Positions 12,384 through 36,300 of a DNA stretch of 64,000 nt are shown piece by piece. The stretch is taken from positions 896,001-960,000 of the forward strand of contig CM000436.1 in NCBI GenBank assembly GCA_000165345.1, in the 5' to 3' direction. The notes under the pieces are model-generated. The model did no database searches, was not told the DNA's origin, and saw only the letters and a list, made by a program, of their open reading frames with translations. A program made the position numbers and the translations under genes. The first letter of the stretch is position 1; every line of letters starts with the position of its first letter.

Positions 12384-14352
12384 ATGATGAGCAGTATTAT
12401 TCTAAATATCTTAAAAATACTCATTATATTTGTATTGATTAATATTATTGGATCAGACTCAGGTGCAGTATCGAACCCATCCAAACAACAAAATAAATTT
12501 ACTAAATTAAATCAAGTATTTAAAAGAAAAAATAAACAATATTATGCTATTTCAAAAGATGGCTCTCTCATATTTCCTGCACTAAAGGCAATTTCTTCCA
12601 AGAATATTCCGCTTTTGAAAAATGTTAATAGCTTTAATAATGAATATGACGAAGGTAAGTTATTTATTAGTAGTTTTAGCTGATTTCTTACATTTCATAG
12701 ATATAATTAATAGAAGCCATGTATATATTATTAAAAATGGAGAAGTTCCTGGGTGGGATGGAATGAAAATACCAATACATTATTCCAGTGAGCATTCAAA
12801 ACTAAGATTGAAACCACCTGAAAAAAGCAGGTCAATTTCTATTTTCCCACCTGTTGTAGCCGAGAGGTAAGTAAAAATATTAATAAATAAATTCAAAATT
12901 GTTTATGTTTTTAGATTTATGTTATTTGCTTTAGAAGAATGCCTTCTTCCATCAAAGTTTTTTATTCAGGTTGCTTTTTGTACATTTGATGCAATTTATC
13001 CATTTTTAGAAGGTGTTCCTTCTGGAGAAGTAATGCAAGATATTGTAGGGGCAGCTATGTATTCGGTAAATAAAATAGGAGACGATTTTTCCTTTGATAC
13101 CAAATATTGCCGTAAAGCAATAGCAATGATTCCAGATTCACGTATAAACTTAGAAGTTGATTCAAAATGCAATGATATCTCTCTATGTATGCACCAAGAC
13201 CATTTTCCTCAATTATCACGTTCCCTAAGTGTATTTAATTTGGAACAATTAATAGAGAAATCGTTTATACTTCATGGTCTTGAGTATCAGCTCAGAGTGA
13301 GAAAACTTATTCAATCAATTCTTTGGAAAATAATTAAATCTGCCCATAAATCAAATATAAAAAGAGAGCATATGAATCCCAATAGACTTTTTTCAATAAT
13401 CAGAGCATATGTACTTACATTGTATATTAGACATTCGAGCCTAATTATTCCAGGATGGTATTTAAATAAATTTCCATCGGCAAAAAATTCATTATCATTT
13501 GTATATGTGAAAAATGAAGATTATACTGAACAATCTGCTTATATAAACTACTGTGCAAGAAAATTAAAATGGTGGTTAGATGCATTCCAACCAATTGTAT
13601 CACCGATTTTCCCGAATATGGATACCAAGGATGAGGTTTCAAGATCCGCATGCTTTCAAGCAGGAAGAGCAGGATTTGTAAGTAACGAAGAGTTTGACTT
13701 CTCAAATATGATCGAGGAAGGTACTGAAAGTGTTGATTTGCTGAACCTTCAACTTCCCATTATATTGAAAAAGTCAGAAGAGGAAATAAAGTATATAAGA
13801 AATAATAACTTAAGAAAAGCTCAAGAAAATAGAAAGTGGACTAGTCACTATGAGTCGTATCCATATTCATTAAATGGAAGAATGTTCCAGGATATTATTC
13901 ATGAAAAAGATAAACTTAACTTACAAAATTTAGCTCAAGAAGCCGAATTAAGCCAAGATAAGGACACTTTATTAGATGAAGTTAAAGATCTATTAGGAAG
14001 AAAAAAAAATGGTGATGAGCCATCTATTAAATATGAAAATATTTTTGATACAAATGGCAGAGAAAGTGACAAAAAAACGTCTTTCTCCCCAGTTGAATTT
14101 ATAGCTCAATTAAAGCAAGATAATATTGACTTAGAATCTCACGATGCAAACACGAGCAATATTTCCTATAAACCCAGAAGCATAATTAGAGATCAATTAA
14201 TTCAACCGCAAAGCACTCATTCTTTGAAACAGGGTATTTATGGAAATGCCATGGATGACACAAATTCTGGATTTGAGGAGGATGAAATCGAGGAATTTGA
14301 AGATGAAGATGAGTTTGAGAGTGAAAACGATAACAATTATTCTACAAAGTAA
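12384..14352 (+). CDS. Divergent WYLE-family paralog 4 with three exons: join(12384..12654,12701..12866,12915..14352), about 624 aa.
   Basis: ATG at 12384 with signal peptide MMSSIILNILKILIIFVLINIIG. Donor GTAAGT at 12655 and acceptor catag at 12700 give a 46-nt intron in phase 1. Donor GTAAGT at 12867 and acceptor ttttag at 12914 give a 48-nt intron in phase 2. The splices join three track ORFs into one frame. Exon 3 carries the family core in divergent form (FMLFALEECLLPSKFFIQ...GEVMQDIVGAAMYS). The C-terminus is acidic (EEDEIEEFEDEDEFESEND), unlike the basic tails of its paralogs. Confidence 0.6.
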
Positions 14353-14447
14353 TTAAATATATATAATACCTAAAGCAATTCAATTTTCAATTTCAGTCTT
14401 TGTTTATTCTATTTGTTTGAGATTTCGAATTATTATGAAATATACAG

Positions 14448-15524
14448 TTATGCATTTCCATTTCTCTGCAATTGCCCCATTCTACTGAATAAATTATTTC
14501 CAATTATACTTCCACTAATACCTAGTGTATTTCCTAAAGTACCTTTTATTCCGTTATTACAGTTGCAATTTCCATTGCAGCTAAGGTGACTTCCGTTTAT
14601 ATTTCCATTATTTAGAGGAAACCCATTATAAACACCATTACTTTGTTGAAAGCCTCCGTAGAAACCGTAGTCTTCGAATCCTCTTATTTGTTGCCCATTC
14701 ATAGGTTGTATTCTCGATCCAAACGGAATAGGGGAAATAAATGGAAGTACAACTGCCTGTACTAGAGCAAAACAACAACTACAAACGGCCAATGATATCT
14801 CTATGCATGCCATCCATTTCATAGTAGATCTCAATTTATCTAGAGGCGATCTATATTTTTTTCTTTTTTCTCTGAGTTCTTTCTCTCTCTTTTTAAGCAT
14901 TTTTTTTCTTTTCTTTCTTTTTTTCTTTTCTTTTTTTGAAAGTTTGCTATCGTCCATATCATCGTCAAGATATCTTCTTTTTAGTTTATTTCGTCTGTAG
15001 TTGATTTCGTTGTGATTAAGTTCATGAAAGCTCGCTAATGAACGGAAGTTTGGCTGGCTTTGAATGCCAAAGTTAACTCTTGAATTAGTATTCTCGAGTT
15101 CCAACTTATCTGTAATTTTTGATATGTTTTTAATATTGTATAGATCTTTTAGGTATATTTCGTCAGTTGAATTTCTATCTTGATTTATTATAAATGAAAG
15201 CTCATCAAATAGCTTGTTATTTTTATCTCCAAGAATGTAACATGTATGTGTTTTATTTACAAATTTAAGTGTATTTATTTGGTAATCACACTTTTCGTGT
15301 TCGTATGCCGAAGTTTCATTAAAATAAATATAATATAAGTTCATTTGCTCATCTTTCAAAATCTTTTCGTTTGTCAGGTTCATCTGAGCCAATATATCCT
15401 CAAATATACTATCTCTTATGGACTCTACATGCTTGACTTGGGCATGATCGATCGAGCTTGAATCTACAAAATTAAAAAAAATCAAAAAAGTAAGTATAGG
15501 AACTAATATTAAATTTGATTTCAT
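14448..15524 (-). CDS. Hypothetical secreted/membrane protein with a lysine-rich stretch and a C-terminal-proximal TM segment (358 aa from the ATG at 15524; an upstream ATG at 15593 gives 381 aa).
   Basis: From 15524 the N-terminus MKSNLILVPILTFLIFFNFV looks like a signal peptide. There is an extreme basic run KKEKKKRKKRKKMLKKREKELREKRKK, then a hydrophobic segment WMACIEISLAVCSCCFALVQAVVLPFI. The C-terminus is N/G-rich and low-complexity, with many NxS/T sequons. Confidence 0.5.
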   Translation of the reverse strand: MKSNLILVPILTFLIFFNFVDSSSIDHAQVKHVESIRDSIFEDILAQMNLTNEKILKDEQMNLYYIYFNETSAYEHEKCDYQINTLKFVNKTHTCYILGDKNNKLFDELSFIINQDRNSTDEIYLKDLYNIKNISKITDKLELENTNSRVNFGIQSQPNFRSLASFHELNHNEINYRRNKLKRRYLDDDMDDSKLSKKEKKKRKKRKKMLKKREKELREKRKKYRSPLDKLRSTMKWMACIEISLAVCSCCFALVQAVVLPFISPIPFGSRIQPMNGQQIRGFEDYGFYGGFQQSNGVYNGFPLNNGNINGSHLSCNGNCNCNNGIKGTLGNTLGISGSIIGNNLFSRMGQLQRNGNA

Positions 15525-15755
15525 TCTAACAGTGATGAAAGCTAGTTTGGCAAATTGCTCTCTACATACAATAGTTTTTCCTGATATTTTCATCTTAAAA
15601 AAATTTGTATGTCAAGTAATTCAAATAAATGCATAATATTTAACGGAACAGTCTGATTATTGCCTTGGGATCATAGAAAAAATTATATTTATTATGAGTT
15701 TTAATAATCTATAATTTAATAAGATTATAGAGTGTTTATGGATTATCTATTTTTC

Positions 15756-17372
15756 TCAGTCAATATCTATAGTTGAAAGAATATCTTCGAGCTGTTTTTT
15801 CAATCCAGAATTTGACGTCGAATTTGAACTAGCATAGCTTTCTATCTCTGTACTGTTGCTTTCATTTGATGTTTTGTTTGCAAAATTTTTTGGAACATCT
15901 AAACGGGTAACAACTGAACGGTTATTCAATATTGCTCCTTTATCACTAAACTGAACTTGCACTTTTTTCTTAGGAGATTGATTTTCTAAGGCTTTTTTTT
16001 GTTTAATATTTTGTTTAAAAGCCCCTCTACTCTTCGAACTTAAGTCAGCACTTTTTACTTGACTCGATGTTTTATCTTTTATTTTTTTGGTCGGCTGTTC
16101 CTTGACAATTTCTCTTGAATGAGCAAGGTGAGGGTATGCTAAATATTCAAGCTCGTTTATTGAAATATTCTTTGGAATTTCAATTTCACTATTTATAAAT
16201 CCCATAGAAACTAATTCAGTGCATGCGTGCTGTATTATTACATTTGAGAATGGGCAAAAGCCTGTCTTATCAAAATAAGATAAATAATCCACTGAATTGT
16301 TTGATAAGTGAGCATTAATAATCAGGCGTGCGCATTTTGCAATCATTTTAATAGGAGTTGGCTGAAGTAGGCTTTTATCTCCAATTTTCATATAGGCCTT
16401 TGGAGAAATCTCAAATGCATCAATATCTTTAAGTCCCTGTCTAATTAAGTATTCAGTTAGAATCATTATAAAGTTGAAGTATCGTATCACATAGAATAGT
16501 TTATCAGGAAATTTTATCTTTTTTCCATCATTTTTACTAGCGGCAGGCCCATAACCTTTTTCCCTTCTTGCCATTAATATTCCAACAATGATTTTCTGGG
16601 CATAAGATCTGGGTTGCTGGCCTCTAAAGAACGGTGGCTTATCTTTGTAGACGTCAGTAATTTCTTTTTCTAATTTCCTAACTTGATTTTTATTATTTCT
16701 CAGAAATTCTTTAGAAGTAAGGCATGTCAGCATCATACTGCAGACTTCCGAATTTTTTTTGTTTATTGCTATGTCACTAAAAAGAGATATTGAGGCCTTA
16801 CATTTAGCTAAACTAAAACTTTCACTTGGAAGATCCATAGATGCTAGTGATGCACCAATAATATCTTGAAGAGTATAGCTTGTAAGAATACCCGTTGTAA
16901 AGTGTGTAACTCCTCTATGCATACAGTATATGAGCTCGAGATACCACAAAGAAGGTATTTTGCAGATACCTATTGCATACGAGAATAACCTTTCGCTTGC
17001 CTCTAAAGGAAGTCTTTGGGAACTTTGAGAAATTACTGGCATTCTTCTAATTTTTACAGAATTATCGATTGGAATAATTGGAACATGAAGCCTAATTGGA
17101 AGTTTTGAATATATGTTCTCAGAAAGAGGGCTTGTTCCATCAGCATTAATATCATTAGGAAAATTGGGTTCAATCCCTTTAATTACAACTGTTCTTAAGA
17201 ACGGGTCCATTTTTCTGACTCTTATTCTATATTGGGAGTTGTATATATGATTGTTTTTTTGATTATCTACCCCTACCAGTATATTGTCAGGATTGTAACT
17301 AGTTTTAGAGGACTTTTTTGAAAGAATTGGAATAAATGTACTAATAAATATTATAATAAGCGTTAGTCTCAT
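15756..17372 (-). CDS. Secreted WYLE-motif family protein, divergent paralog 5 (about 538 aa), single exon.
   Basis: The track start at 17387 is a GTG. The first ATG at 17372 gives signal peptide MRLTLIIIFISTFIPILS. The core is LEASERLFSYAIGICKIPSLWYLELIYCMHRGVTHFTTGILTSYTLQDIIGASLA. The C-terminal part is K/S-rich. Confidence 0.7.
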   Translation of the reverse strand: MRLTLIIIFISTFIPILSKKSSKTSYNPDNILVGVDNQKNNHIYNSQYRIRVRKMDPFLRTVVIKGIEPNFPNDINADGTSPLSENIYSKLPIRLHVPIIPIDNSVKIRRMPVISQSSQRLPLEASERLFSYAIGICKIPSLWYLELIYCMHRGVTHFTTGILTSYTLQDIIGASLASMDLPSESFSLAKCKASISLFSDIAINKKNSEVCSMMLTCLTSKEFLRNNKNQVRKLEKEITDVYKDKPPFFRGQQPRSYAQKIIVGILMARREKGYGPAASKNDGKKIKFPDKLFYVIRYFNFIMILTEYLIRQGLKDIDAFEISPKAYMKIGDKSLLQPTPIKMIAKCARLIINAHLSNNSVDYLSYFDKTGFCPFSNVIIQHACTELVSMGFINSEIEIPKNISINELEYLAYPHLAHSREIVKEQPTKKIKDKTSSQVKSADLSSKSRGAFKQNIKQKKALENQSPKKKVQVQFSDKGAILNNRSVVTRLDVPKNFANKTSNESNSTEIESYASSNSTSNSGLKKQLEDILSTIDID

Positions 17373-18378
17373 CTCTTCAAGATTCACATAAATAAATTAA
17401 CAATTTCAAATAGGAGATCTTTATCAGAAGCTTAAGATTATTTTTCTTTTGTTGTCAGCAACTTAAATACTCCTCGGATTGCATTCTTTTATTATTACTC
17501 CTTGTTAGACGGGAAAAACTAACAATTGAATCTCTTCTGGCCAATGATTAGTTAACAAAATAGTCTTCACGTAATAGTGCAGTCCCAGGCGTTGGATTCC
17601 TAAAGTAGTACTAGTATTCACAAAAAAAATCTATATTCGTTATCGACGTTACCTGCAATAACTGCAAAAAAAATCATGTCTTTACCGCCAATTTGTGCGT
17701 ACTAATTTGTCGGCGGGCTGTGCAGCCGGAATAAAGTCGAAATTTAAACATAAAATTAAAGTACTAAAGTATAAAAATAAAATACTCAGATATAAATATT
17801 GATTCCGGAATCGCAACCTTCCTCAAAAAATAAGTCAGTAGAGGGAGCGAAATCATCATTGTATTTTATCGCTTAAGTTAAAAGCTATGCAAAAAGAGCT
17901 AAAATCCAAATATTGTCGGCTCATTATTACACAACCTGAAAACTCAAATATAACTCCATATTTCTCTCGAAATAATATTTATAAAGCTAATACTTCAAGA
18001 CTCATGACTATTGAAATCTTGTAATTCCACAATATAAGCGATATCCATGCTCCGAACTTCAATTAAAATCATATAAACTAGGCTTAAGGTTATCTCAGCG
18101 ATTGAATATGACAATATCACAAACTCCTCTGGATTCCGGGTAGGTTCAAACCCAAAACAGCAGAAAGGAGATTCAATCAATACATGCAAGCATCATTGAA
18201 TAACCAAAGCCCAGATATTCTCCAAGATTTGATGATTTCTCTAAAGCAAATTTATTCTTGTCTCCGATATTCTTAAAAGGGATAGACAAATACATGGCGC
18301 CGATATTGTTGAGTTATATAGCAGGATTTCAAAACCACGGAAATATGATAAAGCGAAATCGTGAAAATATATTGCCTT

Positions 18379-20031
18379 TCAATCTTGTTTAGTATTTTGA
18401 CTGGTTTCCCCTTTTGAATTCGAGTTGCTGTCCATTGTTGGAGTATTGCGTTTACTGCTCTCTTTTTGCTTATTTTCTAAGACCTTCTCTTCGAAGTTAT
18501 TTTTGATTTTCTCGGCAACTTTTTTGAAATGTTCTTCGTCTGAAATATACAATTTTCTAAGGTTTTTGATGGCAGACGCCCCTCTTTCGCCTCTGGTTTC
18601 GGCGCTTGCTGATGTTTTGGGATTGTTTTCTTGTAGCCATACCAACATCTTTGCGATTTGTCGGATCTCTTTGATTTCTGAATCTTGAAGTTCTTCCTTG
18701 GGTTTTATGCCTTCATTGGATTCTACACCCTTTTTATCTACATTGCTTCCTTCGGAATTTATATTATTTTGACTAAATTGTGCAGTTTCTTTATTTTTCT
18801 CAGCTAATTTTCTTCTCTTAGCCTCTTCCAATATGGCAGCAATAATAACTTTTCTTCGTTCTTTTTTCTTTAGGGACGCCTCACTGTCTTGAAGTTCTTC
18901 AGGTTTGGCTTCCAACTGATTACTATCTTCTATTTTGTTCTCTATTTTATCTTCCATTCTATCTTCTACAGAAAGTTGTTGAATTCTTTTTTCAATTTTT
19001 AGCAGCTCAATATTTTGATTGTGTAAACTTTCTTTATTTCTTTCTATATTTTCCAGAATATTTCTATACTCTTTTGTTTTTCTCTCTTTATTCCTAAGTT
19101 TCTGCGCACGCATGCTTAGATTTGCATTTTCTAACTTTAATTTACCTATTTTTTGTATCAAATTCTTTTTAATTTCAACGCACTCAGGGAAGTTCTTTTC
19201 TTCATATTCAAGGCCTACACTAGATTCTATTAAATTTTTGGATTCAGTTACAGTTTCATCAATTTCAATATTTAATTGTATAGCATTAATCAACTTCCTT
19301 CCTGCAAGAATCTCTAATGCTGCAATCTGTTGGTTTGGAGTAATTAGAATAACGGTGTCATCTTCGTCTTCCAAATCATCAGGAGCATTAACGTTATCAA
19401 TTACTTTTTTTAAGGTCGCGGAGCTGGGCTGGCTATCTGATTTCTGATAAACAATCTTGATTCCAGATGCAAGTATCTTTTTTCTTGTAACTTCATCAAA
19501 GGGAGATATATCTCCAGAGTCAGTAGCTTCTATATCATGCTGCCTTAGTAAATTCAATTTATCTAACAATCTATTTTCTTCTATTATTTTGTTTATTTCA
19601 AATTCTTCTTGTTCTTGATCTTCAAGACCTTTTTGTCCTTTAACTGTGGCAATATCCCCACCAAAAGCAAATAATCCACTATATTTTAATTCAATATCGG
19701 ATAGCCACAATTTGACAAATGTATTGTTTTTAATATTGTATTCCTTTATAATCTCTGGATGATTGTAAAAGTTACCTTTATTTTCAACGGAAATCTCTAC
19801 TTCTCTTTGAATATTTCCAATAACTTTATTATCAAATTTAGTAAACTTTTTTTTCTTTGAATTATATTCTAAAATAAAGTTAATTTAATTTGTTAAATTG
19901 CCTTATTTCTTACCTCTCGTTGCTTGTACTGCTTGATAAAAACTTTTTATATCAACTTTACTGCACTCACTTTCTTGAAAAAGCAATAAAATTAATATAA
20001 TACATATTGAAAAAAACCTCGTTCTAGACAT
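18379..20031 (-). CDS. Secreted acidic coiled-coil protein with two exons: complement(join(18379..19868,19914..20031)), about 535 aa.
   Basis: Exon 1 reads ATG...MSRTRFFSICIILILLLFQESEC (signal peptide) and ends in phase 1. Donor GTAAGA at 19913, a TTAAC branch point and acceptor ttttag ending at 19869 give a 45-nt intron. Exon 2 continues in frame into the 443-aa track ORF (..KLWLSDIELKYSG..), which has long E/K-rich heptad regions. Confidence 0.55.
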
Positions 20032-20259
20032 TCGAAACCTATATTTGCTTCTATTCCTCACTAATATGTTCATTTCAAAATTTTTTATTACAAGTCTGAT
20101 CTAATAATTTTGATTCCGAAGGCGGGTAATTTTGGCTTATTTCTTCACCTGAAAAAAAACTAGTGAATTTAAACAAACTCGTTATTTTGTGCGATTAGAG
20201 AAAATTTATGGTTAAATGCAATCTTATAACAAAATATTATAATTTTTATCTATCAAATT

Positions 20260-22155
20260 CTATCTGTTCTTTCTTTTTGGTAGACTTGATTTTGGCACAC
20301 GAATTTTTTTTACATTATTTTGAGGAGCGCATATTAAGTCCCCAATTTTGACACATGCAGTTTGCTCACAATTTTTTTTGCCACTGCTCTCAAATATCTC
20401 AGAATAACATTCATCGGAGCCTTTATTTCTGTCTAATACGAGAGTTTCGCTAGACGCTTCACTGCGTAGCATGTCCTTGGTATTAAGTAATTTAGGTTTT
20501 ATAGGACTTCCAAGTGTTTTATTACTCCTTTTTGGCATTTTGTGCTGAATAATTTGCAAAAATTGAGTATCCCTAGTTATTGGAATATTGCCATCTTCAG
20601 AGTTTTCGCTGGGAATGTCAAATAGCTCACTATAACCTTCAGAGTCTCTTTTTTTTAGTGTTTTTTTCAATTTAAGAGTTAAGCTAGAATTATAACTTGC
20701 GCCTTCCTTCAAAAGATTGTTTTGCATGCTAGAAGTAATTGAGGGAAGAGTGGGATTCAATGAAATACTTTCATCAATCTCAAATTGAAGGTCATCATAT
20801 CCATACTTAAGATATTCTTTACTGTATTTTTTTGGCAAAGTTTTATTTTTATCTTTACAACCTATAGGAATAGTGAGGGAATTTTGAAATCTATCAAGCC
20901 TATTTTTGGGTTCAGGACTCAATTTTGGACTTGAGAAGTCTTCTTTTTCAAGTATCTTTTTATGCTTTGTTTTTCCCTTGACATTTTTATTATCTTTCTT
21001 TTTCGTATTAAGTTTCATATTTTTCTCATCAGAAAATTTTTTAGTTTCATCCTTTTTCAGATCCTCAAAATTGAAGTATTCTATTTGCTCAGGAGTAGAT
21101 AATAATTCATTTTCTTTTCTTTTATTATTTGAATGCTGCTCTCCTTCATAAGAAAAATTTTCTGCATACATTATTTCTCCTGATGGGATTTCGTTTACTA
21201 GTATAAGTTTAGAATTTAATTGTTTTTCTTGGATTGACAAATCTTCGGGATCTTTTACAGAATCTATATTTTCATCTGGATAGTGAAGCTCATGCATTTC
21301 TGGTTTTTTATAGGTGTTTTCAAACTCAGCTACAACCGATCTTCCTTCTTCATCCAGTTTATTATATAATTCTTCTTTTATTGGACTGGATTTAATTAGA
21401 TGCCTTGCAGAGCCCTTCCAGTTTGGTTGATTTATTTGTTCGGTTTCTAAAACTCTAAGCAGAAAAAAAAAATCAACGTCAAGAAAATCAGCATATCAAT
21501 AGAAACTTACTTTTTCTGGTCACTTGTAGTAGCTTTATTAAATGAACTTTCTACATTATACTCGTCAAACAAATCTAGATCTTTCATCAAATTTTCGGCT
21601 TTTAAATCAGTATTCAATAACTGAGAGATATTTTTCTCTGCAGTTAGGCTCTTATGATCAAATTTAGTTGGGTACCCTAATACTGGAGTTGATTCCTGAC
21701 TACTTTCGGTATTATTGTAATCGAATACAATATCTTTTATTTCTTTTATTTTTTCTTTAATTTCTTCAAGTTTAAGTTCAATATTATCCCCCCCTATTTC
21801 AACCTTTGGAAGATTAAATTCTTCCAGATTCTTAGCCGTTTTAGGCCTATTATAAAGTGGATAAACTTTTAGAAAATAGTCTTACTTACCTAGTAGGCGT
21901 TCTAATTCCACTTATTTGTTTAGGGGTATTTTGAAAGAGCCCTATCCTACCTTGTTTCTCGTTAACCTTCTCTATATCGCCTTCACTCATTTCAATATTA
22001 TTCTTCGAGACTATTTCAATAAAACCTGGGATCTTATTTTTGATGATCTCAGCATCATCTAAGTAACTTGATTCACTGATTACAAATCTAAAGAGATAAA
22101 GTGAAACCAACAAGAAATATAAACAATTTATTATTTTTAAACTGCCTCCAGCCAT
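20260..22155 (-). CDS. Hypothetical secreted K/E/S-rich protein with three exons: complement(join(20260..21454,21511..21846,21890..22155)), about 598 aa (an upstream in-frame ATG at 22185 is the alternative start).
   Basis: The signal peptide is MAGGSLKIINCLYFLLVSLYLF. Exon 1 ends ..ACT AG with donor GTAAGT; a 43-nt intron (21889..21847) ends at ..ataatag, in phase 2. Exon 2 is an open 111-codon frame ending ..CAGAAAAA with donor GTAAGT; a 56-nt intron (21510..21455) ends at ..ctgcttag, in phase 2. Exon 3 runs in frame into the 345-aa track ORF. All phases close with canonical GT-AG introns. Confidence 0.55.
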
Positions 22156-22388: not shown

Positions 22389-22412
22389 TCCCACATTAAG
22401 CGCGCCACAGAC
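22389..22412. promoter_or_regulatory. AGCGCGCC plus TTTTGGCGG boxes in the divergent promoter between the 22155 minus-strand gene and the 22640 gene.
   Basis: A GC island in an AT-rich intergenic spacer, with the same core as the other boxes. Confidence 0.4.
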
Positions 22413-22639: not shown

Positions 22640-23392
22640 ATGATGGAGATCATCACCGTAGATAGTTTACAAGAGAATAAGTATATTTATAGCGGCTCTG
22701 AATCTACGAAAAATAATAGTTTTGAGTCATTTTGCTCGAGATTTTTTAAACTTAACTATGGGATTATAATACTTTCTGTGTTTTCGATGCTGGTTACTAT
22801 ATTCGGATCATTATTTGAGTCAATAATAAAAATGTATTGCTTCATGATGGTAAATAGACTAGTTTGCACAGCAATGATCTTTTCTTTTCTGCGGCACATT
22901 TGGAACTTTGACAAATCAAGTATCAAAATTATATTTTCTCTTCACTTAATAAATCAGTTTAACTATCTTGGAGTATCAATCGTAGCCATTTCTACAAAAG
23001 TCCCATCGATTTCTACTGCATCTATACTGAACTCTTTTAATATTATGAATGTATTTTCAACGATTTGTTTTGCATCAATTTTCATAATGGAAATAGTAAA
23101 CTTGATTTATGTTTATAATCTATTTTTTCAGGCACAAAAAAATTTAATTATTTTAAAACAAGAAATGAATAATAATAATATAAAGCTAAATCTATGCACC
23201 TACATTATATTTGGTTATAACCTTATTACAGATTGCATTTATATAATGACTTCGATTATAGCATACGCCAAATTTACATTATTTCATGGACATTATATAG
23301 AGATTTCATTAAGCTCAATTTCTGGTATTTGCATTCTTATTTTTGCAACTGGATTAATTTTAAGCATTTCTATCTTTAATTATTTGAGATAA
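22640..23392 (+). CDS. Hypothetical polytopic membrane protein (250 aa).
   Basis: ATG ATG start. It has at least six hydrophobic helices (IIILSVFSMLVTIFGSLF, VCTAMIFSFL, LGVSIVAIS, VFSTICFASIFIMEIVNLIYVY, IYIMTSIIAYA, ISGICILIFATGLILSISIF). I do not recognise a conserved family. Confidence 0.5.
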   Translation: MMEIITVDSLQENKYIYSGSESTKNNSFESFCSRFFKLNYGIIILSVFSMLVTIFGSLFESIIKMYCFMMVNRLVCTAMIFSFLRHIWNFDKSSIKIIFSLHLINQFNYLGVSIVAISTKVPSISTASILNSFNIMNVFSTICFASIFIMEIVNLIYVYNLFFQAQKNLIILKQEMNNNNIKLNLCTYIIFGYNLITDCIYIMTSIIAYAKFTLFHGHYIEISLSSISGICILIFATGLILSISIFNYLR

Positions 23393-23423
23393 ATGCGCGT
23401 GCCGAAATAATTCAACTTAAAAA

Positions 23424-23998
23424 ATGAATAATTATTCAACTTTAGAGAAATTACCTCAAATCACTATTAATGCAGGCCCATTAGATAATTTATGGCCAGA
23501 GAGACTAAAAGAGGAGCTGAAGGTATTAATAGGATATGTGGCATTATTAAAAGATTCAGGAGAAGAGTGGTTCAATATTAAGCCACTTCAAGATGGAACA
23601 AAGTAAGGTTAACACATTTTTCATATTGTCTAATTTATTAGTTATAGATGGGAAGGAGTTTGTTGGTACACTCACAACTTAAAAAGATACGAATTTGCAT
23701 TTCGCTTTAATGTAAGTTGAAAAAACATAAATATATCTGAGTTCAAATTTTTGGAAATTTTAACGGGTTTTAGATACCTGAGAAGTATCCTATTACTCCA
23801 TTCGAAGTTGAAATTCCAGAGTTGGATGGGAAAACTTTGAAAATGTATAGAGGCGGAAAGATTTGTATGGATACTCATTTCATTCCTCTCTGGCTAAGAA
23901 ATTGCCCAAAATTTGGTATTGTTCATATTCTAGCTTTCGGCCTGGCGCCATGGCTTGCTGCAGAAGTTCCATTTTTGGTATCATCATGTAAAATTTAA
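23424..23998 (+). CDS. UFC1: Ubiquitin-fold modifier-conjugating enzyme 1 (UFC1), three exons: join(23424..23602,23648..23711,23774..23998), 155 aa.
   Basis: The spliced product aligns end to end with human UFC1: [27 protein letters not shown] vs [29 protein letters not shown]; [22 protein letters not shown] vs [22 protein letters not shown]; [52 protein letters not shown] vs [52 protein letters not shown] (catalytic Cys in GGKIC). The introns are 45 nt (GTAAGG..ttatag, CTAAT branch) and 62 nt (GTAAGT..ttttag, TTAAC branch), and the phases close. Confidence 0.75.
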
Positions 23999-24407: not shown

Positions 24408-27400
24408 ATGACGGAGAAGACGCATCAAATGGAGGAGAGTTTTCTCAATGATGAGGATTTAAAATCAGATATCGAAATACCACAGGAAGAAACATGCAAC
24501 TGCCCAAAATCTACCCCAGAACAATTGGAATATAAAAATAGTGTATTTATTAGTGACGACTTATTTTATTCTTTTGAGTTAGATAAAAATATGATAGATG
24601 AAAAAAAGAAAATTGATGAACAGCCCAAAGATGGAGGTCTTTTTCAGAAACGTGAAAATAGTTCAAGTTGTATTTTTGGAAGAGCTATTAATTATATTCG
24701 AAGGAAAAGGCCTCAATCTAAAATTGCAAGTGACGCAAATCAGGTCCCTTCAAATAATGACAAGAATAACGGATCAATTTTATTTTCCATATTAAAGTGC
24801 CTTCATGGCACCCACTTATTTGATAAGTACACAAAGAAAATTGGCAAACACATTTCTCTTGTTGCAGCCGTGTACCCTAGATCTCTGCTGATTATAGGGA
24901 ATGTAATGGGGTTAATGTTTGGTTTAATAGTTGCTTTGGGTTTGATGAAGTTATACCCATTTCATCTTGATGTAAATGGATCTCTTGATTTATTTCTTCC
25001 TACAAAGTCGATTCACAACGTTCATAAAGAAGAGCTACGAAAGTTGTTTGGCCCAGAAAGTGTAACCGTCCCAATTTTATATAGTAATAAGGGGCCACCA
25101 GGATCATCTCTTTTAGATTACGTAACTTTAAAACAAATTTGGAGAAATGAAATGTCAATTCAAGCAATAAAAGTAGTAGACAAAAAAGGAAAAGAATGGG
25201 GCTGGGAGGATATTTGTTATCATCAACCAACAGGATCTGTAGTTACGGGGATACCTTGTGTTGCTTTGTCCTTATTTGGTCTTTTTATGATAAATGAATC
25301 ATCTGGGATTTTTTCTGAGAAGGACTTTGATGAAGCGTTTACAGGTGATTGTTGTAGCGGAATTAGTATTGCCAAATTTGCAGCAGGAAACTTATTAAAA
25401 CAGTCTTATTTTCCTTATCAATACAAATATGATGAGAATCTCCCTGAGTGGCCATTCGAGATTCATAATACACAGGAAATGCTTTCTATATATAGATTAA
25501 ATACGACTGTTCCTGAAGAGGTAAGAATTGCATGGGAAAACAAAGTCACAGACCATATTAAAAGTGTGCAGAGACGTAATAAACTTGTGAGTATCATTAA
25601 TACTGAAGAGAAGTCTAAAGGTAACCCAATTAAATTAAAAAACAGAAAGCTTCAAGAAAACGAGAATTCAGATAACTCTACAGAGACTCTAAGCAATGGA
25701 TTAAAACAAGAAACTTTTGGCTATTCTACAAGTTCAGAAACTTTGAAGGATGTAAGTATTTACCCAAACAATTGGGGGATTGTTCATTATTCCTTGGAGT
25801 TTGTTTCGTCTGAAACTACAGAATTGGCAAATAAAGAAACCCCACTATTGCTTGCAACATTCGCCTTGATGATTATTTTTATGGCAGTTTGCATATCCGG
25901 AAAATTTCCAAAAAGATCCAGGGTATTATTATCTTCAACTGTTGTTATGATAACTGTATATGCTACTGTGGGGAGTTTTGCAACTGGAATGATATTTGGA
26001 GTGCCAATCTCTCCTCTTACGCCATTATTTATTCACATGTTGTTGGGAGTTGTTGTAAGCTACATGATAATTTCTGTAAGAACTTATATGAAGACTCGGA
26101 TATATATTAGAGTACCATTTCATTATTTACCTTTATTAAATCCTAAGTATGTTCGAGTTTCCGGTAATGAAGTCTTTCTTGAAATTACACAATATATTTA
26201 CAAACCATGGATGGGATTCTTGTATTTAGAAACGGATAATAATAATTCTAGCAAAATAATTCACGGAAATAGCCATAGTTATGGTAGCACAAGCGTTGGG
26301 TTAATTTACGGTCAAAATCAATCAAGTAATGAAATTTCATCTTTTAAGTCAAGCTCTGTGTCGAATTCATATTCAAACGAGAGAAGTCAATCTGAACAGA
26401 CTGAAAAAACTTATGTTACTACAGATTTTGTGGCTTCAAAAGAAAATAAAATTCCATCAAATAAGGTATCTTCAGACCAAGATCTATACCATGATTATGG
26501 GCAGAATGATTTTGAGCGCATAAATGAAGTGGAAGATAATGCTGATGAAATTCGCGTTACCAATACTGGTAAAATTATTGATTCAAGCAATGAATGGCAC
26601 ATATATCCTGAATATATTGAGAAAAAAATGTGGGATAACGATACGCTTCTCAAAATCAGGCTTTCCGTATCAGGTTCCGTTGTATTTAGTTCAATTACCC
26701 TTACTTGTCTTACATCTTGTGCAGCGCTATTTTTGGGGACGGTAGTAGACTTCCCAATAGTGCGTTATTATTGCATTCATGCTGGCTTTGGAATACTCTA
26801 TTTATTTATTTTCCATTGGCTGATTTTCCTTCCTTCTTTTGTATTAGATGAAAAGAGAATATATCGTAGAAAATACGATGTTTTCCCATTTTTGAAATTT
26901 AAACTTAATAATAAAAGGTCAAAGTATTTATTCATTCCTGAAGAACCTAAGTTTGTTGGAAGTAACAATGACCAGCAAAAATTGGAAATTTCATCCAGTA
27001 TAAATCCATTTACGCGTGTTGCTTCGCCATCTAATGTTTCTCTTTCAGCATCAAACGACTCTAGAAAAGGTACAATTCTTTCCATATTTACTAGGCATGT
27101 GTACAAAGTAAGGAGCGAAGTTGTAAAAAATTATCAAAGATATAAAACATGGTGGGGGGATAAATCTGCAAATCAACGCAAGCAAGAACAATTTCATCAA
27201 AGGAAAAGCAATATTGAACTTAATGAGATAAACAATATAGTGTTTAACGAAGTATATTCTAAAGATGCTTCAAATAAAATGGATCAACCCCACTTACCTT
27301 ATAAAAATAATAGGAACATTGCGATTCAGAATGCAATTGATAGTATTGATATGCATGATATTTGGATTGGAAGATTAATGGTGGAATCTTCTAAGGCCGA

Positions 27401-28805
27401 TGTAATTATGAGACTAATGTGCAACTTTACATTTAGGCTGTTTGCATGCCTGTTCTTCATTGTGGTAGTTATACTGGGAATAATGTTTGGGAAAAATGTT
27501 AATACAGAGTTTAGTGCAGTTAGATACCTCCCCCCAAACTCTACTTTACATTATTTTGTAGAAACATTAGCAAAATCATGGGGTTCTGAACCGCGTCAGA
27601 TGTATCTTGTGTTCCCAGGAAGTGACAAAGTATCATGGAACAATAAACATGTCCGTGAGGAATTCATTAATTTAGTTGATAACGTCTTATTAAAAGATCC
27701 AGCAATAATGACACCGATTGTAAGTTGGATTCATGATTTTGAAATTTTCCATTTTGGAACAAATACTCCAGAAGACCCAGATCACATTCAATCTTTTGTT
27801 AGAGAATGCTCTCCAGATCTAGACAATCCACGGCCACCTCCTAATGATGCTCCCGAAGAAGAGTTTTACAAATTTCTGAATGAATGGAGGAATAGGAAGG
27901 TTTTTAAAGGAGATGAATCTCAAGAAGATACTATTTGTGTCGTATCAAAACTTAGTTCAAAACTTACAGCTTCTACCTTGTCTGAAAGTGCGCCTTTCAT
28001 CAGAAATATTATTCCAGAAATGCACGATGAAACCATGCTTGTATTCAAAAATGGAAACCCTTCAGAAGGAATTCAATCATTTAGAATAATGACTATGATA
28101 AAGCATAGTCCTTTGAATTCGCAATATAACTTTGAAACAATGAATCGGCTCTCAAATTTAATCGAAACAGTTTTTGAGAAAGATTTTCCTGGTACATATA
28201 TTTACAGCGACTGGTTTTTGGAAGCTGAGAGAGATCTTAATATCTTGTATATTGTTTGGAAACTTCTTCTTTACATAACACTTGGTGTATCAATTATGCT
28301 TTGCATTATTCAAAACCCTTTAACTGGTATTTTTATAGGGCTTGTTGTGGGAGGGATTAATATTACAGTAATATTGATTATGTACATTACTGGACTTATC
28401 TTTGATATTGTAGCTTTCATGGTTCTAGCAACAGCAGTATCATTTTCAATTGAATATATTGTACACATTACTCATTTGTTCCTGCTAACAAAAAGAAACT
28501 CCGGAGTCGAAAGGATTCGAGATTCACTTTTAGATATGGGGCCTAATGTTATATATGCTGTAATATCGACCTTCCTTGGTGTTATACTTCTAGCATTTTC
28601 TACTTCAGAATCGTTCAAAGTTTTTCTTTGGATAACTACAATTGTTCTTTGTGTCTCTGCAACAGCAGGAATTATGATAGCACCGGCAATCCTTTCTATT
28701 GCACTTGATTTTGGAAACTTCATTAGAGATTACTACAACAATAGAAAGAGGCAGCAAGAACTAGATGACACAATACTTGAGATAAAGTCAAACAATATAA
28801 TTTAG
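24408..28805 (+). CDS. Patched/NPC1/Dispatched-like RND-superfamily membrane protein (1465 aa), single exon.
   Basis: There are two clusters of about 5-6 TM helices separated by large hydrophilic loops. The second cluster contains GLIFDIVAFMVLATAVSFSIEYIVHITHLF, which resembles the conserved GIAVEFCSHITRAF motif of NPC1/Patched-type proteins. The N-terminal region is cytosolic and low-complexity. The ATG at 24408 is genuine. Confidence 0.6.
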   Translation: MTEKTHQMEESFLNDEDLKSDIEIPQEETCNCPKSTPEQLEYKNSVFISDDLFYSFELDKNMIDEKKKIDEQPKDGGLFQKRENSSSCIFGRAINYIRRKRPQSKIASDANQVPSNNDKNNGSILFSILKCLHGTHLFDKYTKKIGKHISLVAAVYPRSLLIIGNVMGLMFGLIVALGLMKLYPFHLDVNGSLDLFLPTKSIHNVHKEELRKLFGPESVTVPILYSNKGPPGSSLLDYVTLKQIWRNEMSIQAIKVVDKKGKEWGWEDICYHQPTGSVVTGIPCVALSLFGLFMINESSGIFSEKDFDEAFTGDCCSGISIAKFAAGNLLKQSYFPYQYKYDENLPEWPFEIHNTQEMLSIYRLNTTVPEEVRIAWENKVTDHIKSVQRRNKLVSIINTEEKSKGNPIKLKNRKLQENENSDNSTETLSNGLKQETFGYSTSSETLKDVSIYPNNWGIVHYSLEFVSSETTELANKETPLLLATFALMIIFMAVCISGKFPKRSRVLLSSTVVMITVYATVGSFATGMIFGVPISPLTPLFIHMLLGVVVSYMIISVRTYMKTRIYIRVPFHYLPLLNPKYVRVSGNEVFLEITQYIYKPWMGFLYLETDNNNSSKIIHGNSHSYGSTSVGLIYGQNQSSNEISSFKSSSVSNSYSNERSQSEQTEKTYVTTDFVASKENKIPSNKVSSDQDLYHDYGQNDFERINEVEDNADEIRVTNTGKIIDSSNEWHIYPEYIEKKMWDNDTLLKIRLSVSGSVVFSSITLTCLTSCAALFLGTVVDFPIVRYYCIHAGFGILYLFIFHWLIFLPSFVLDEKRIYRRKYDVFPFLKFKLNNKRSKYLFIPEEPKFVGSNNDQQKLEISSSINPFTRVASPSNVSLSASNDSRKGTILSIFTRHVYKVRSEVVKNYQRYKTWWGDKSANQRKQEQFHQRKSNIELNEINNIVFNEVYSKDASNKMDQPHLPYKNNRNIAIQNAIDSIDMHDIWIGRLMVESSKADVIMRLMCNFTFRLFACLFFIVVVILGIMFGKNVNTEFSAVRYLPPNSTLHYFVETLAKSWGSEPRQMYLVFPGSDKVSWNNKHVREEFINLVDNVLLKDPAIMTPIVSWIHDFEIFHFGTNTPEDPDHIQSFVRECSPDLDNPRPPPNDAPEEEFYKFLNEWRNRKVFKGDESQEDTICVVSKLSSKLTASTLSESAPFIRNIIPEMHDETMLVFKNGNPSEGIQSFRIMTMIKHSPLNSQYNFETMNRLSNLIETVFEKDFPGTYIYSDWFLEAERDLNILYIVWKLLLYITLGVSIMLCIIQNPLTGIFIGLVVGGINITVILIMYITGLIFDIVAFMVLATAVSFSIEYIVHITHLFLLTKRNSGVERIRDSLLDMGPNVIYAVISTFLGVILLAFSTSESFKVFLWITTIVLCVSATAGIMIAPAILSIALDFGNFIRDYYNNRKRQQELDDTILEIKSNNII

Positions 28806-29020: not shown

Positions 29021-30343
29021 TTATACACTTACCTTTTTATCTTCTAACTCGTCAAAAACGTAAATTCCATTTAGGTTATAAACTCCCGATACTAGTGCCT
29101 GGCAATCCAGCTCTAATGTAACTGTTTCCCCCGCTTTTAGCTCTTCTAAATATAAACGGTCATTTCCTAATATTATTATTGGTAGAAGCTGGTCAAAATC
29201 CAATCTAATGCTCATGCCTTTTTGATCAATGCTTAAGTTATTCGTAACATATAAAAAAACTTTAAATTCTTCCTGCCTATTATTTACTGATGGTAATTCA
29301 GCTTTGAGAATAATTGCGTTTTTCTCTTTATTCAATTTGTTTTGATCGCATAGAATTGGTAGACCAATTTTATAAGAGTCAAGCCATCCATCTCCATATG
29401 ATACTGAAACCCATCCAATTCTAAGCTTAAGTTCTAGAACCTCTCTACTACTCTTTCCTAAATTATTGTATTCTCTACTGCAAGACGTAAATTTAAATAT
29501 TTTGTTGTATTTACATCTTGGTTGAATATATAAAGGCTCGTTATGCTTATTTTTTAAATTCACATCTTCCAGTTCAAATATTAGTTCAGGTAGTTTTTTT
29601 ATATTTATAGGTTCAAGCTTCATACTACTAAGGGTAATACTTTGGTGAGAAACATTTTCTAGTGAAACTTCAACAAAAATGGTCTTCTTATCCATAGTAT
29701 CTTCATCTAAATTGTATAATCGGTGAGAAATATTGAAAGGAGAAAGCACTGCAAATTTGTATGACTTCTTTTGTGTTAATCTAGCCTCATTTGATGTGAA
29801 AAATAATTGGCAAGTTAAACTATATAGCCCAACCTCGTCTACCCTTTCTTTAACTACAATATCCAATGAATCTCCAATATCTATATCGGAATAGTTATCC
29901 TCATTATTGTATAGTATGTGGCGTTTCTTTGTACCTACAAGTTCTACCTAAAAGAAATAAATTATAATCTTTCAATACAATGTAACCTACTTTTAGAACT
30001 ACCCCATTTGCCTTAATAATACTCGAGTTGGTGATACTAATAAACGCATGAAAAGACTCACCGCAATATAAACGGCTTAAGAAGTGAAATAAATAGTTTA
30101 TTTGTAAAATTATTCATTAAATTGATAAATTAGACGCTCTTTCATACTTACCACTGAGTTGTTGGCAATAAAAGAGGAAACATATTATCAACACACAAAA
30201 CTTCTTCTTCTCCATTTTCCAAATTACACTATTGTTGTTAGAAGTTAAATTAACAAATTAAACTCAAGTATTTTTAAAAAACTCACCGGAAGTAAACTTA
30301 ATGTAGATACCTGTGAATCAATTGGAGAATGTGAAAGTGACAT
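29021..30343 (-). CDS. Hypothetical conserved-looking protein with four exons: complement(join(29021..29947,29991..30036,30152..30228,30287..30343)), about 368 aa. The 5' exons are provisional.
   Basis: The 281-aa track ORF begins at a TTG, and its frame continues 27 codons upstream to acceptor cttttag (intron 29990..29948, 43 nt, donor GTAGGT). Further upstream, exons are bounded by GTAAGT (30151) ..115 nt.. tttattag, and by GTGAGT (30286) ..58 nt with a CTAAC branch.. caatag. All phases close from the ATG at 30343 (MSLSHSPIDSQVSTLSLLP|CNLENGEEEVLCVDNMFPLLLPTTQ|C ITNSSIIKANGVVLK|VELVGTKKRHILYNNE...). The function is unknown; the protein has beta-rich alternating hydrophobicity. Confidence 0.45.
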
Positions 30344-30719: not shown

Positions 30720-30884
30720 ACATTATGCTAATGTCAAAATTTGCATTTAAAACTGAACAATCTAAATAATCCGACTCCAATACATAAAATAAAATTTAAG
30801 CATTAAATAAAGCTAAGCGTAGAGGTTTGTATATCCCTTATTGAATTCTTGCAAGTAAAACAATTTTTCTCGATATTTTTTGAT

Positions 30885-32201
30885 ATGTTAATTTTTAAAG
30901 GAGGAAATTTCTTGAGACAAAGACTAGCTCTTTCGACGATAACAGGTAAACCAATAATAATTAAAGAAATTAGAGCAGATGATACTTTGAATCCTGGCCT
31001 AAATGATTCCGAAACATCTTTACTACATCTTTTGGATTACGTTACGGATGGTTCCAAAATCAAGATTAATGATACAGGTACTACTCTAAATTATACACCA
31101 GGAATAATTACTGGTGGAGGCACATCAGATAAACCGCTAATTCACGAATGTCATCCTAGCAGGTCACTATCTTACTATATAGAATTTTTATTAATGTTTG
31201 CCCAATTTGGGAGAGATCCTTTATGTATTAAACTCATTGGAATTACTGATAACAGTAGTACAGATCACTCATCCGATTTAATTAGAATGGTTACTATTCC
31301 TTTAATAAAAAAGATGATTCCCCAGGTTGGAGAGATATCTTTGAGCATCATTAAGAGAAGTGTGTCACAGAATTCTCCAGGTCAAGTACAATTGAATATA
31401 CCTACTATCAAAAAGATTGAACCTATATTAATGGATGGGCCAATTGGCAGAATAAAGAGAATTAGAGGAATTTCATGGTACACAGGTTCAGCATCTGCTC
31501 AAATAGCAATTAAAATGATTTCTAAGGCCAGAGGTATTTTGAATAAGTTTATTCCCGATGTATGGATTTACTTTGACAAACCAAAAAAAGACTCTCTTCA
31601 AAATGATGAGGAAATTACAGGTTTTGGGATGACTTTGGTGGCAGAAAGTATTAAAGGTATTACAATAGGTTCAAATTGCTCCTTTATCTCAAGTTCGATT
31701 GATGTACAAAAAATGTTGAATATCCCTATGGAGTCTTTTGAAGAAGAGCAAGTATTTAATTCAGACAATATTAATGAATATCAAATTCCAGATTTGAGTA
31801 GTGACTTATCAGCTAATGGCGAATACTCCAATGAATCTCGCAATGAAACATCAAGTTCAATTCAAGAAATTCAAAATAATGAAGAATTCAAGAGTTTAAC
31901 GGAATGGGAAAAAATCGGATGGCTAACTGCCAGTAGGCTACTTTTAGAAATTGATTCGCAAAGTAATGTTGACACAAGCCACCAGATATACCCACTTTTA
32001 TTTATGTCACTTTCACAGGATACTGCTACTTCTAAACTCAAACTATCTAAGCTAGCGCCTATGACTATTCAATTTATGAGAGACTTGAAGACCTTTACAA
32101 ATATTGAGTTTACAATTAAAGAAGATACCGAAAATGGTCTATTCATTATACTTTCTTGTACAGGAATAGGCTTCTCTAATTTCGCAAGAAAGGCAGCTTG
32201 A
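30885..32201 (+). CDS. RCL1: RNA 3'-terminal phosphate cyclase-like protein Rcl1, for 18S rRNA processing (438 aa from the ATG at 30885).
   Basis: The track start at 30849 is a TTG. From ATG 30885 the sequence MLIFKGGNFLRQRLALSTITGKPIIIKEIRADDTLNPGL...TGTTLNYTPGIITGG...IRGISWYTGSASAQIAIKMISKARGILNKFIPDVWIY...GFGMTLVAE...CTGIGFSNFARK matches Rcl1/RtcA-family landmarks (FEGSNFFRQRLVLATL, NQTGTTL.Y.PG, IKRIRG, ILNKFIPDIYIY, GIGFSN). There is one S/N/E-rich insertion at 31700-31950. Confidence 0.75.
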   Translation: MLIFKGGNFLRQRLALSTITGKPIIIKEIRADDTLNPGLNDSETSLLHLLDYVTDGSKIKINDTGTTLNYTPGIITGGGTSDKPLIHECHPSRSLSYYIEFLLMFAQFGRDPLCIKLIGITDNSSTDHSSDLIRMVTIPLIKKMIPQVGEISLSIIKRSVSQNSPGQVQLNIPTIKKIEPILMDGPIGRIKRIRGISWYTGSASAQIAIKMISKARGILNKFIPDVWIYFDKPKKDSLQNDEEITGFGMTLVAESIKGITIGSNCSFISSSIDVQKMLNIPMESFEEEQVFNSDNINEYQIPDLSSDLSANGEYSNESRNETSSSIQEIQNNEEFKSLTEWEKIGWLTASRLLLEIDSQSNVDTSHQIYPLLFMSLSQDTATSKLKLSKLAPMTIQFMRDLKTFTNIEFTIKEDTENGLFIILSCTGIGFSNFARKAA

Positions 32202-33145: not shown

Positions 33146-33345
33146 TCAAGCTAAAGTTAATTACTATTAAGGTTTGCATTCTCACAAGCTTTTGTAATGA
33201 AATTTTATTTAAAGTGAGTTTCGGAAGAGAATAGGAGGGTTGCTCATATAATAGGTTAGTATTTTAGTATTGTATACCTTACGTCCAAAACTTACGGGTT
33301 TTGGCCGGGGAAAATCCATAACTAGGCTTGCTCGAATTGCTCAAA

Positions 33346-36300
33346 ATGAAGAAGGAAGAGGAAAACCTTCCAATTTATTCCTCACTAGAGGAATTTATAG
33401 AAATTAATGGAGGCGTTAACCTTATTAAAAAAATTCTAGTGGCCACAAGCGGACAAGCAGCAATAAAGTGTATAAGATCTATGAGGCATTGGGCATATGT
33501 TACATTTGGGAATGAAAAAGCTTTTGAATTTGTAGTAATGGCGACGCCTGAAGATATCCAAAGCAACTCAGAATCTGTGAGCGAAGCTGATTATTATGTT
33601 GATATACCGATGGGCCCAAACTATCATAACTATGCAAATATTGAAGTAATCGTTTCAATAGCAGAAGAACATGAGTGCGATGCTGTCTGGCCAGGATGGG
33701 GTCATGCCTCTGAAAACCCAGAGCTTCCAAAAGCTCTTTTAAGAGCTAGAAGAAAGATTATTTGGATTGGTCCTTCAGCAGAATCAATGGAAACTGTAGG
33801 GCAAAAAATCCAATCAAATATTATTGCTCAATCCGTACAGGTTCCGTGTGTTCCTTGGTCAGGAGATGGAATTTCTGTTAGTGTAGATAGGGATGGGCGC
33901 TTCACAGGTATTGTTTCTGATGAGCAACTTCAAGCAGCGTGCGTCAATAGCACTCAAGAATGTATTGACGTTTGTAAGCGAATTGGATTTCCTGTTATGA
34001 TCAAGGCTAGCTCAGGAGGTGGAGGGAAAGGTATCCGACTTTGCAGTTCCATGGAAGACCTAGAATCAAATTACAGACAAGTTATAAATGAAGTTAAAGG
34101 TAGCCAAGTATTTGTTATGCGAGCAGTTAATAAGTGTAGGCACCTAGAGGTTCAAGTACTAGGAGACAAATATGGTGACGTGTTCGCATTGAGCACAAGA
34201 GATTGCACAATACAGAGGCGTCACCAAAAGGTTATAGAGGAAGGGCCAGTTACAATTGTGAGTCAAGAGATTGTTAAGGAATTGGAGTTATCTGCAGAGA
34301 GGATGTGCAAAGCTGTGGGTTATTCATCTGCAGGAACTGTTGAATTTCTATATGATATTGAACGTTCATGTATAGCTTTTCTAGAAGTTAATGCCAGATT
34401 ACAAGTTGAACATGTTGTTTCTGAGGGAGTAGCTAACTGCAATATACCCGCAGCACAGTTACAAATTGCTATGGGAATTCCATTGAAGAAAATTCGTGAT
34501 ATTGAAGAATATAGAAAGCTAAGAAAGCAGGGGAATGCGCCTCCAAGGCATATTATCGCAGCAAGAATAACATCTGAACATGCTGAGAAAGGATTTACTC
34601 CAACATGTGGAGACGTGTTTGAAATTTCTTTTAGATCTTCGCAAACAGTATGGGGATACTTTTCAGTTGCTTCTCCAGGTCATATCCATCAATACTCCGA
34701 TTCTCAATTCGGACACATTTTTGCTTTTGGAATGAATAGAGAAGAAGCAAGAAAACATTTAATCATGGGTTTGAAGGGCTTAACCATCAGAGGTGAGATT
34801 AGAACAAATGTTGAAGCAGTTTGTAGAATATTAGAAAATCAAGATTTCATTACAGGCAACACATATACACAATGGCTAGAACACAGTGTCTATTTCTCTT
34901 CACCGTTAACTAAAAAAGTTACAATGCAGTATTTGAATGCAGTATTTGCAGCTGCATGTTTCACTGGGCTCAGATACTTCAAAGAAAGTGAGGATACATT
35001 TGTGAGGATGCTTGAGCAAGGACAAGCTCCAACCAGTATCAATATTCAGTATGAAATGACTCTAGTTCACAAGGGGATGAAGTTTATATGTGAGAGCCAC
35101 TTTATTGGTCCTGAACACGTCAGAATTATGTTGAATGGTAGTTCTGTTACAGCGAAGGTGCGTAATATTTATCCACCCAGTATGCAAAATGGGCGTGACT
35201 CGTGCTATTTAATATCAGGAGGTTTTGATGGTAGAAACAGGAAGGTTTTCTTTAAAAAAGATGCTGAAGATAACTTATTGGTTACATTTGATGGAACTAC
35301 TTACACATTCCTAAAAGAGCAAGACCCTCGTCAAGTTAGAGCTCCAGTTAGTGGTAAGTTAGTAAGGTGGTTAATACAAAACGGAGGTCAAGGTGAAAAG
35401 GGCCAGGCATACGTTGAAATAGAAATTATGAAAACATATATGCAGCTAACTCTTTCTCATAGTGGAGTTCTAGAGCATGCTAAACCTCAAGGCGCTTCAT
35501 TCAATGTGGGCGATATCCTAGCAATGTTAGAGCTCCCTAGTGAGTTTATCCCTCCTGCTTTGGAGCTATACCCGCTACCATTTCCAAAAATAGGAGGGGT
35601 AAAATCTCCAAAGCTTGCTCTTGAGACTTTTTGCTCTGGAGGATTTAGAGGAGGCCCGAGAATGGTAGCTTTAGCAAACTTTAGAGAAGGAAAGCAACAG
35701 CTTCTAAATGCACTTAATGGGTTTTTCCCAGCCTTTGAGGATGTTAGAAGCGCTCTTGGGATGTTCTACCATGTTTTAGACCCAATAATGCCATTTATTG
35801 AACTTCAAGAAGCTTGCGAAGTTGCCACACCGCTTATCAAAGTTACAGTTCGAAGAAAAATATCTGATTTGATAGAAGATGTATTTCAAACATTTGAGCA
35901 ATTAAGTAAAAATAGCTGGTATGAACAGTTTGATAGACAATTGAGCGCATTTATTTCTAATAATTCTTGCTTTGAATCTGATGTAATGTCAGACCAATGC
36001 TTGAATTCATTCGAAGATAATGATGATATCGAAGATGAAGGACAGCCACCAAAAGTTCTTCAAGATAAACGCCTAAGTTCTGATGGTTCTGAAATGCCAT
36101 CAATGCTGCTTTCAAACAAAGCTGATGAGCTTGACCCAAAAAATGCGAGCTTCGCACAGAATAAGAAGGAATTAGCCAAAGAAATATTTGTAAATGAGGC
36201 CGAACAAAAAAAAAGTTTTGAAAATTTTCTTGGTACTAATATATATTTGAAGAACCATTCAAAAAATATTAGATCGGCATCTGATTTAGAAATATATATA

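Follow-up and report, generated by a model that had tools for sequence, protein, structure and literature searches.

UFMylation has been lost from fungi and from Plasmodium, Gregarina, Perkinsus, Entamoeba and Trichomonas, UFM1 persists in other apicomplexans, Toxoplasma among them, and some eukaryotes retain only parts of the UFM1 machinery (PMC10183829). Where UFM1 has been lost, the C-terminal tail of RPL26 (uL24) is truncated and the target lysines are missing (PMC10183829). In apicomplexans, including Toxoplasma, C53 is devoid of the UFM1/ATG8-binding sAIM motifs (PMC10183829), so the downstream biology in these parasites may not follow the model drawn from animals and plants. Among unicellular parasites, the pathway is active in Leishmania (PMC7600729). 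The active site of the dedicated E2, UFC1, has been described around T106, K108 and W145 of the human enzyme, which together form the 'TAK' oxyanion-stabilising element, a substitute for the HPN motif that other E2s carry (PMC12032130). For Cryptosporidium, a literature search returned no paper on UFMylation or the UFM1 pathway, and Picchianti et al. 2023 do not name the genus in their supplements. The initial annotation of the present sequence had stated that the system is missing from fungi and many reduced parasites, in agreement with this published phylogenomics.

The gene studied here lies in a window of 64,000 nucleotides of C. parvum DNA, which is the whole stretch that was analysed and to which all positions refer. 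Three exons on the + strand join to a spliced coding sequence of 468 nt with an intact reading frame, TAA stop included, and a product of 155 aa containing the sequence YRGGKIC(112)MD. Both introns are short and AT-rich, starting with GTAAG and finishing with TAG. The features of the gene are as follows:

23424..23602, + strand: UFC1 exon 1, 179 nt, from the ATG to codon 60 and ending in phase 2, encoding the N-terminal helix and a long helix bearing the invariant motif RLKEE; identical to the deposited EAZ51478.1/QOY40128.1
23603..23647, + strand: UFC1 intron 1, 45 nt, GTAAGG...TATAG, 22% GC, with TAA stops in frame
23648..23711, + strand: UFC1 exon 2, 64 nt, encoding a stretch of 21 residues
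23712..23773, + strand: UFC1 intron 2, 62 nt, GTAAGT...TTTAG, 24% GC, causing a frameshift if retained
23774..23998, + strand: UFC1 exon 3, encoding the active-site loop and the C-terminal helix, with the stop codon at 23996-23998
23834..23842, + strand: codons of T102-L103-K104, corresponding to the human TAK element (T106-A107-K108)
23864..23866, + strand: TGT codon of the catalytic Cys112 (human Cys116), in a GGKIC context

The initial annotation had proposed this three-exon model with introns of 45 and 62 nt, and it proved exact to the base. Its remark that no open reading frame in the region exceeds 60 aa holds for the + strand (60 and 58 aa) and fails for the - strand, which carries a 68-aa ORF (23672-23878) of no significance. 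Its description of the gene as hidden was mistaken, since the identical 155-aa protein, with both introns, had already been deposited for C. parvum (EAZ51478.1 from Iowa II, QOY40128.1, WKS79624.1 and KAL5367105.1) and bears the name 'Ubiquitin-fold modifier-conjugating enzyme 1' in UniRef. The 90%-identity cluster of this protein also contains UFC1 entries of 155 aa from C. hominis, C. tyzzeri and C. meleagridis. GenBank, UniRef and several Cryptosporidium annotations thus already record the gene, both introns and the name. The spliced UFC1 protein was not among the Logan (read-assembly) sources of the exact sequence.

We consider it highly probable (about 96%) that in C. parvum the 155-aa product is orthologous to UFC1, the E2 dedicated to UFM1 conjugation, and is encoded in three exons separated by two ancestral introns. 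The identity is supported by the sequence, the catalytic residues and the predicted fold. The product scored 240.1 bits (E=1e-71) with the Pfam family UFC1 (PF08694), whose cut-off is 25; the alignment spans profile positions 3-154 of 155 and begins at residue 5 of the protein. Human UFC1 (PDB structures) matched over residues 7-151 with E=1.3e-53. These two scores exclude a chance origin and bear out the earlier claim that the spliced product is collinear with human UFC1. The claimed catalytic GGKIC context was likewise recovered, with Cys112 aligned to human C116. Orthologues in the genus share 83% (C. ubiquitum), 79% (C. canis) and 59% (C. muris) identity with the C. parvum protein, and relatives outside Cryptosporidium, among the matches listed, about 53-60% each. 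Between C. parvum and C. ubiquitum the dN/dS of the gene was 0.10 (dS 0.99, dN 0.10), which indicates strong purifying selection. An AlphaFold2 model built with 40 homologues as input had a mean pLDDT of 91.2 and superposed on human UFC1 (3EVX) with a TM-score of 0.95 and an rmsd of 1.2 A; the TM-score with Leishmania major UFC1 (3KPA) was likewise 0.95. Foldseek ranks 1-29 were occupied by UFC1 structures only (TM 0.88-0.96), and the best non-UFC1 ubiquitin E2 reached a TM-score of 0.50 (E=5e-4). A scan of the protein with the ubiquitin E2 family PF00179 (UQ_con) gave no matches at E<=0.001; because this match and the HPN motif are missing and the architecture is of the UFC1 type, the protein is not a ubiquitin E2.

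Support for the splicing comes from comparison among species and from existing annotations. Introns are uncommon in the genome of C. parvum. The UFC1 genes of C. ubiquitum and C. muris have introns at the same codon positions as both C. parvum introns, with lengths of 45/62 nt in C. parvum and C. ubiquitum and 54/63 nt in C. muris and in-frame stops throughout, and the annotated UFC1 proteins of C. ubiquitum and C. muris can be reproduced from their DNA only when both introns are removed. We also mapped the UFC1 proteins of Besnoitia besnoiti, Cyclospora cayetanensis and Ichthyophthirius multifiliis, which share 53-57% identity with C. parvum UFC1, onto their own genomic DNA. Intron 1 falls at alignment column 63 in phase 2 in the three Cryptosporidium species, Besnoitia, Cyclospora and Ichthyophthirius, intron 2 falls at column 85 in phase 0 in the same three Cryptosporidium species, two coccidians and ciliate, and the exon between them is exactly 64 nt long in all six species examined. 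Since columns and phases are common to Cryptosporidium, coccidia and a ciliate, both C. parvum introns are ancestral alveolate introns kept in an intron-poor genome. Besnoitia, Cyclospora and Ichthyophthirius differ from Cryptosporidium in carrying two extra downstream introns (column 110, phase 2; column 141, phase 0), which have been lost in Cryptosporidium, and the ciliate has one additional upstream intron relative to C. parvum. The Cryptosporidium introns (45-63 nt) are also much shorter than those of the coccidia (141-539 nt).

One deposited C. canis protein (OJ253_556, 138 aa) is without 15 exon-2 residues that show strict conservation across the UFC1 family. These residues are present in another C. 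canis UFC1 record (155 aa), and we set the 138-aa form aside as a mis-spliced model in one assembly.

Conservation of the active site was assessed against 27 UFC1s from outside Cryptosporidium. Of the 48 columns invariant across this set, the C. parvum protein retains 45, and it deviates conservatively in the other three (L117M, A135V and G157C in human numbering). Kept residues include human T106, K108, Y110, C116, F121, W145 and E149, which correspond to T102, K104, Y106, C112, F117, W141 and E145 in C. parvum, and the catalytic Cys is invariant in all 27. In the TAK-type motif the Thr, the Lys and the supporting Trp are invariant and the middle residue is variable (A/P/S and others), being Leu in C. 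parvum. Judged from the alignment, every mutationally tested active-site residue is present in C. parvum UFC1. Two positions of note in the human enzyme are changed. The human auto-ufmylation site K122 is I118 in C. parvum, and just 14 of the 27 other UFC1s have Lys at this position. Human R23 is L20 in C. parvum and S, S and N in the other three Cryptosporidium species, and it is Arg in 25 of the 27. We take R23Q to be a reported human UFC1 disease variant. The codons for L20-D21, at the human R23 equivalent, occupy positions 23478-23483 of the window.

A UFM1 homologue appears to have been present in published tables for some time. Under the name 'UPF0185' (PF03671), Table 1 of Ponts et al. 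2008 lists one protein each for T. gondii, C. parvum and C. hominis and none for five Plasmodium species and yeast, and Table S1 places cgd1_2790 (C. parvum) and Chro.10314 (C. hominis) beside NP_057701.1 (human), AT1G77710 (Arabidopsis) and ZK652.3 (PMC2408969). Table I of PMC7029713 gives PF03671 as the Ufm1 family, and C. elegans ZK652.3 (PDB 1L7Y) matched human UFM1 with E=7e-47. Because cgd1_2790 is listed under PF03671, and PF03671 is Ufm1, the C. parvum genome holds a UFM1 homologue: according to this literature listing, the UFM1-family gene cgd1_2790 is in the same genome as UFC1, on another chromosome. Conjugation of UFM1 depends on a C-terminal Val-Gly. The text of Ponts et al. 2008 states that UFM1 was not found in apicomplexans, although the tables of the same paper disagree (PMC2408969); the match went unrecognised because the family had not yet been renamed. 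Of the companion genes predicted by the initial annotation (UFM1, UBA5 and UFL1), UFM1 alone is therefore on record for C. parvum (Ponts et al. 2008, PMC2408969). Its wider statement that UFC1 implies a UFMylation pathway is a reasonable step, partly verified, the verified part being the listing of cgd1_2790. Within the 64-kb window itself, a Pfam scan of all 27 ORFs of at least 120 aa revealed no companion genes of the pathway (UBA5, UFL1, DDRGK1, C53 or UFSP) and tblastn with human UFM1 as query revealed no UFM1. The PDB holds no apicomplexan UFM1 structure.

We infer the enzymatic activity of C. parvum UFC1, its partners beyond UFM1 and its cellular role, and the mechanism proposed here is modelled on the human and Leishmania enzymes. 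As in the model of the human enzyme, UBA5 would adenylate UFM1 and then form a thioester with it. UFM1 would next move to Cys112 of C. parvum UFC1, again as a thioester, and an E3 scaffold would assist its transfer to a substrate lysine, with T102, K104 and W141 stabilising the oxyanion. A role in ER-ribosome quality control in Cryptosporidium would be an extrapolation from animals and plants, and the pathway may serve another purpose there, as in Leishmania (PMC7600729).

An intact UFC1 could also be the relic of a UFM1 pathway that is now incomplete, for example without an E3 complex, and could have a reduced or different role, a reading that we consider unlikely. It would be in keeping with the partial UFM1 machinery of some eukaryotes and the loss of sAIMs from apicomplexan C53 (PMC10183829), with UFM1 being the sole companion confirmed, and with the lack of conservation of human R23 and K122 in the C. 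parvum protein. However, the gene is under strong purifying selection (dN/dS 0.10) and present throughout the genus, its catalytic set is complete, and the genome has a UFM1-family gene. An E2 and its modifier are hard to maintain together without an E1.

The gene upstream of UFC1 raises two further readings of the locus. The features concerned are:

22640-23392, + strand: upstream membrane-protein gene, 250 aa, EAK89523.1, with several hydrophobic helices
23393..23423, + strand: spacer of 31 nt from the stop of the upstream gene to the UFC1 ATG, with a GC-rich element of putative function
24408-28805, + strand: NPC1/patched-like sterol-sensing-domain (SSD) protein, 1465 aa, EAK89524.1

The 250-aa protein had no Pfam domain, and a search of 1.84 billion representatives returned no relatives beyond its own cluster; by these results the multi-pass membrane protein is genus-restricted and specific to Cryptosporidium. 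The order membrane protein, UFC1, SSD protein is the same in C. parvum, C. ubiquitum and C. muris, and the spacer between the first two measures 31, 36 and 8 nt, respectively. What is observed is a conserved tight linkage alone, and a functional tie between the membrane protein and UFC1 is hypothetical. The C. parvum spacer contains GCGCG at 23395-23399, 25 nt 5' of the UFC1 ATG, and the C. ubiquitum spacer contains CGCGCG, which fits exactly the E2F-like core [C/G]GCGC[G/C] known from C. parvum promoters (PMC3734150). A total of 201 polycistronic transcripts have been reported in C. parvum, 160 of them with an E2F motif between the cistrons (bioRxiv 10.1101/2025.01.17.633476), and the membrane protein and UFC1 pair fits this description and may be a candidate dicistron. 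That UFC1 is the downstream cistron of a dicistron conserved in the genus, together with a Cryptosporidium-specific membrane protein, is a speculative proposal that we consider unlikely. If it were true, expression of the UFM1 E2 would be coupled to that of a lineage-specific membrane partner, and the two might also be linked in function; the partner might, for example, replace part of the ER-anchoring machinery.

Sites of the GCGCG type also occur elsewhere in the window, at 22400-22405, some 235 nt 5' of the membrane-protein start codon, and at 11355-11361, some 55 nt 5' of the start codon of a minus-strand ORF (9790-11301). Three of the five E2F-like sites in the window lie in short 5' intergenic spaces. 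GCGCG was not enriched across the window, with 8 matches against 7.7 expected.

The two genes have also been annotated as one. Two deposited C. hominis proteins (OLQ17375.1 and PPA64446.1, 376 aa, 'UFC1 family protein') join residues 1-228 of the upstream protein to residues 8-155 of UFC1, which would make UFC1 part of a membrane-anchored fusion spliced through a putative 120-nt intron (about 23324 to 23445). Both genes do lie on one strand, separated by 31 nt, and C. parvum has a donor-like G|GTATTT and an acceptor-like TTTAG|AG. The acceptor AG is, however, missing in C. ubiquitum (CCTGG|AG), so the 376-aa model is probably an annotation artefact. Such splicing would moreover cost the upstream protein its last hydrophobic helix and UFC1 the beginning of its N-terminal helix, the Pfam UFC1 match starts as early as residue 5 of the stand-alone protein, and all remaining annotations show separate proteins of 250 and 155 aa. 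We rejected the fusion on the unconserved acceptor and regard it as very improbable; the stand-alone 155-aa UFC1 is the form retained here. The suspicion that short ORFs (none above 60 aa on the + strand) are juxtaposed by chance in a genome where introns are uncommon, or belong to a dead pseudogene, is refuted by the Pfam score (E=1e-71), the dN/dS of 0.10 and the intron positions common across alveolates, and its probability is negligible.

UFC1 is surrounded by ordinary housekeeping genes. Beyond the SSD protein, the window contains the following:

29021-29866, - strand: TRAPPC13
30849-32201, + strand: RNA 3'-phosphate cyclase
33328-41523, + strand: acetyl-CoA carboxylase, 2731 aa
41690-42118, - strand: DIM1
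45505-46932, - strand: zf-CCHC/RING protein
48588-49961, - strand: amino-acid transporter
59636-60910, + strand: DnaJ
61898-62905, - strand: CRAL/TRIO protein
63236-63649, - strand: AATF/TRAUB C-terminus

Pfam gave no match for eight long ORFs in the interval 1955-21297 or for a 2123-aa ORF on the - strand (52806-59177).

Cryptosporidium retains a UFM1 E2 under strong selection, whereas the system is gone from Plasmodium and the gregarines. Should the pathway be complete in the parasite, it would be open to study as a system of ER and ribosome homeostasis.

Among the systems described elsewhere, the ubiquitin E2s (UBC core, PF00179) have a superfold (weak structural matches, TM about 0.5) and thioester chemistry in common with C. 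parvum UFC1; these carry HPN, and C. parvum UFC1 has TLK at that place. The mitochondrion of Cryptosporidium is a mere remnant. The UFM1 system of Leishmania has been reported to be mitochondrion-associated (PMC7600729), and the UFC1 of Leishmania major / L. donovani (3KPA) is a protozoan-parasite UFC1 of the same fold (TM 0.95). Human UFC1 (2Z6O, 3EVX, 7NW1 and 8C0D) shares about 51% identity with the C. parvum protein over the entire length, and the two have the same fold, the Cys in GGKIC, a T-x-K element replacing HPN and equivalents of Y110, F121, W145 and E149. The C. parvum protein is shorter (155 aa compared to 167 aa), being trimmed at both ends, and it differs from the human enzyme in having Leu in the middle of the TAK element, Leu for R23, Met for L117 and Ile for K122.
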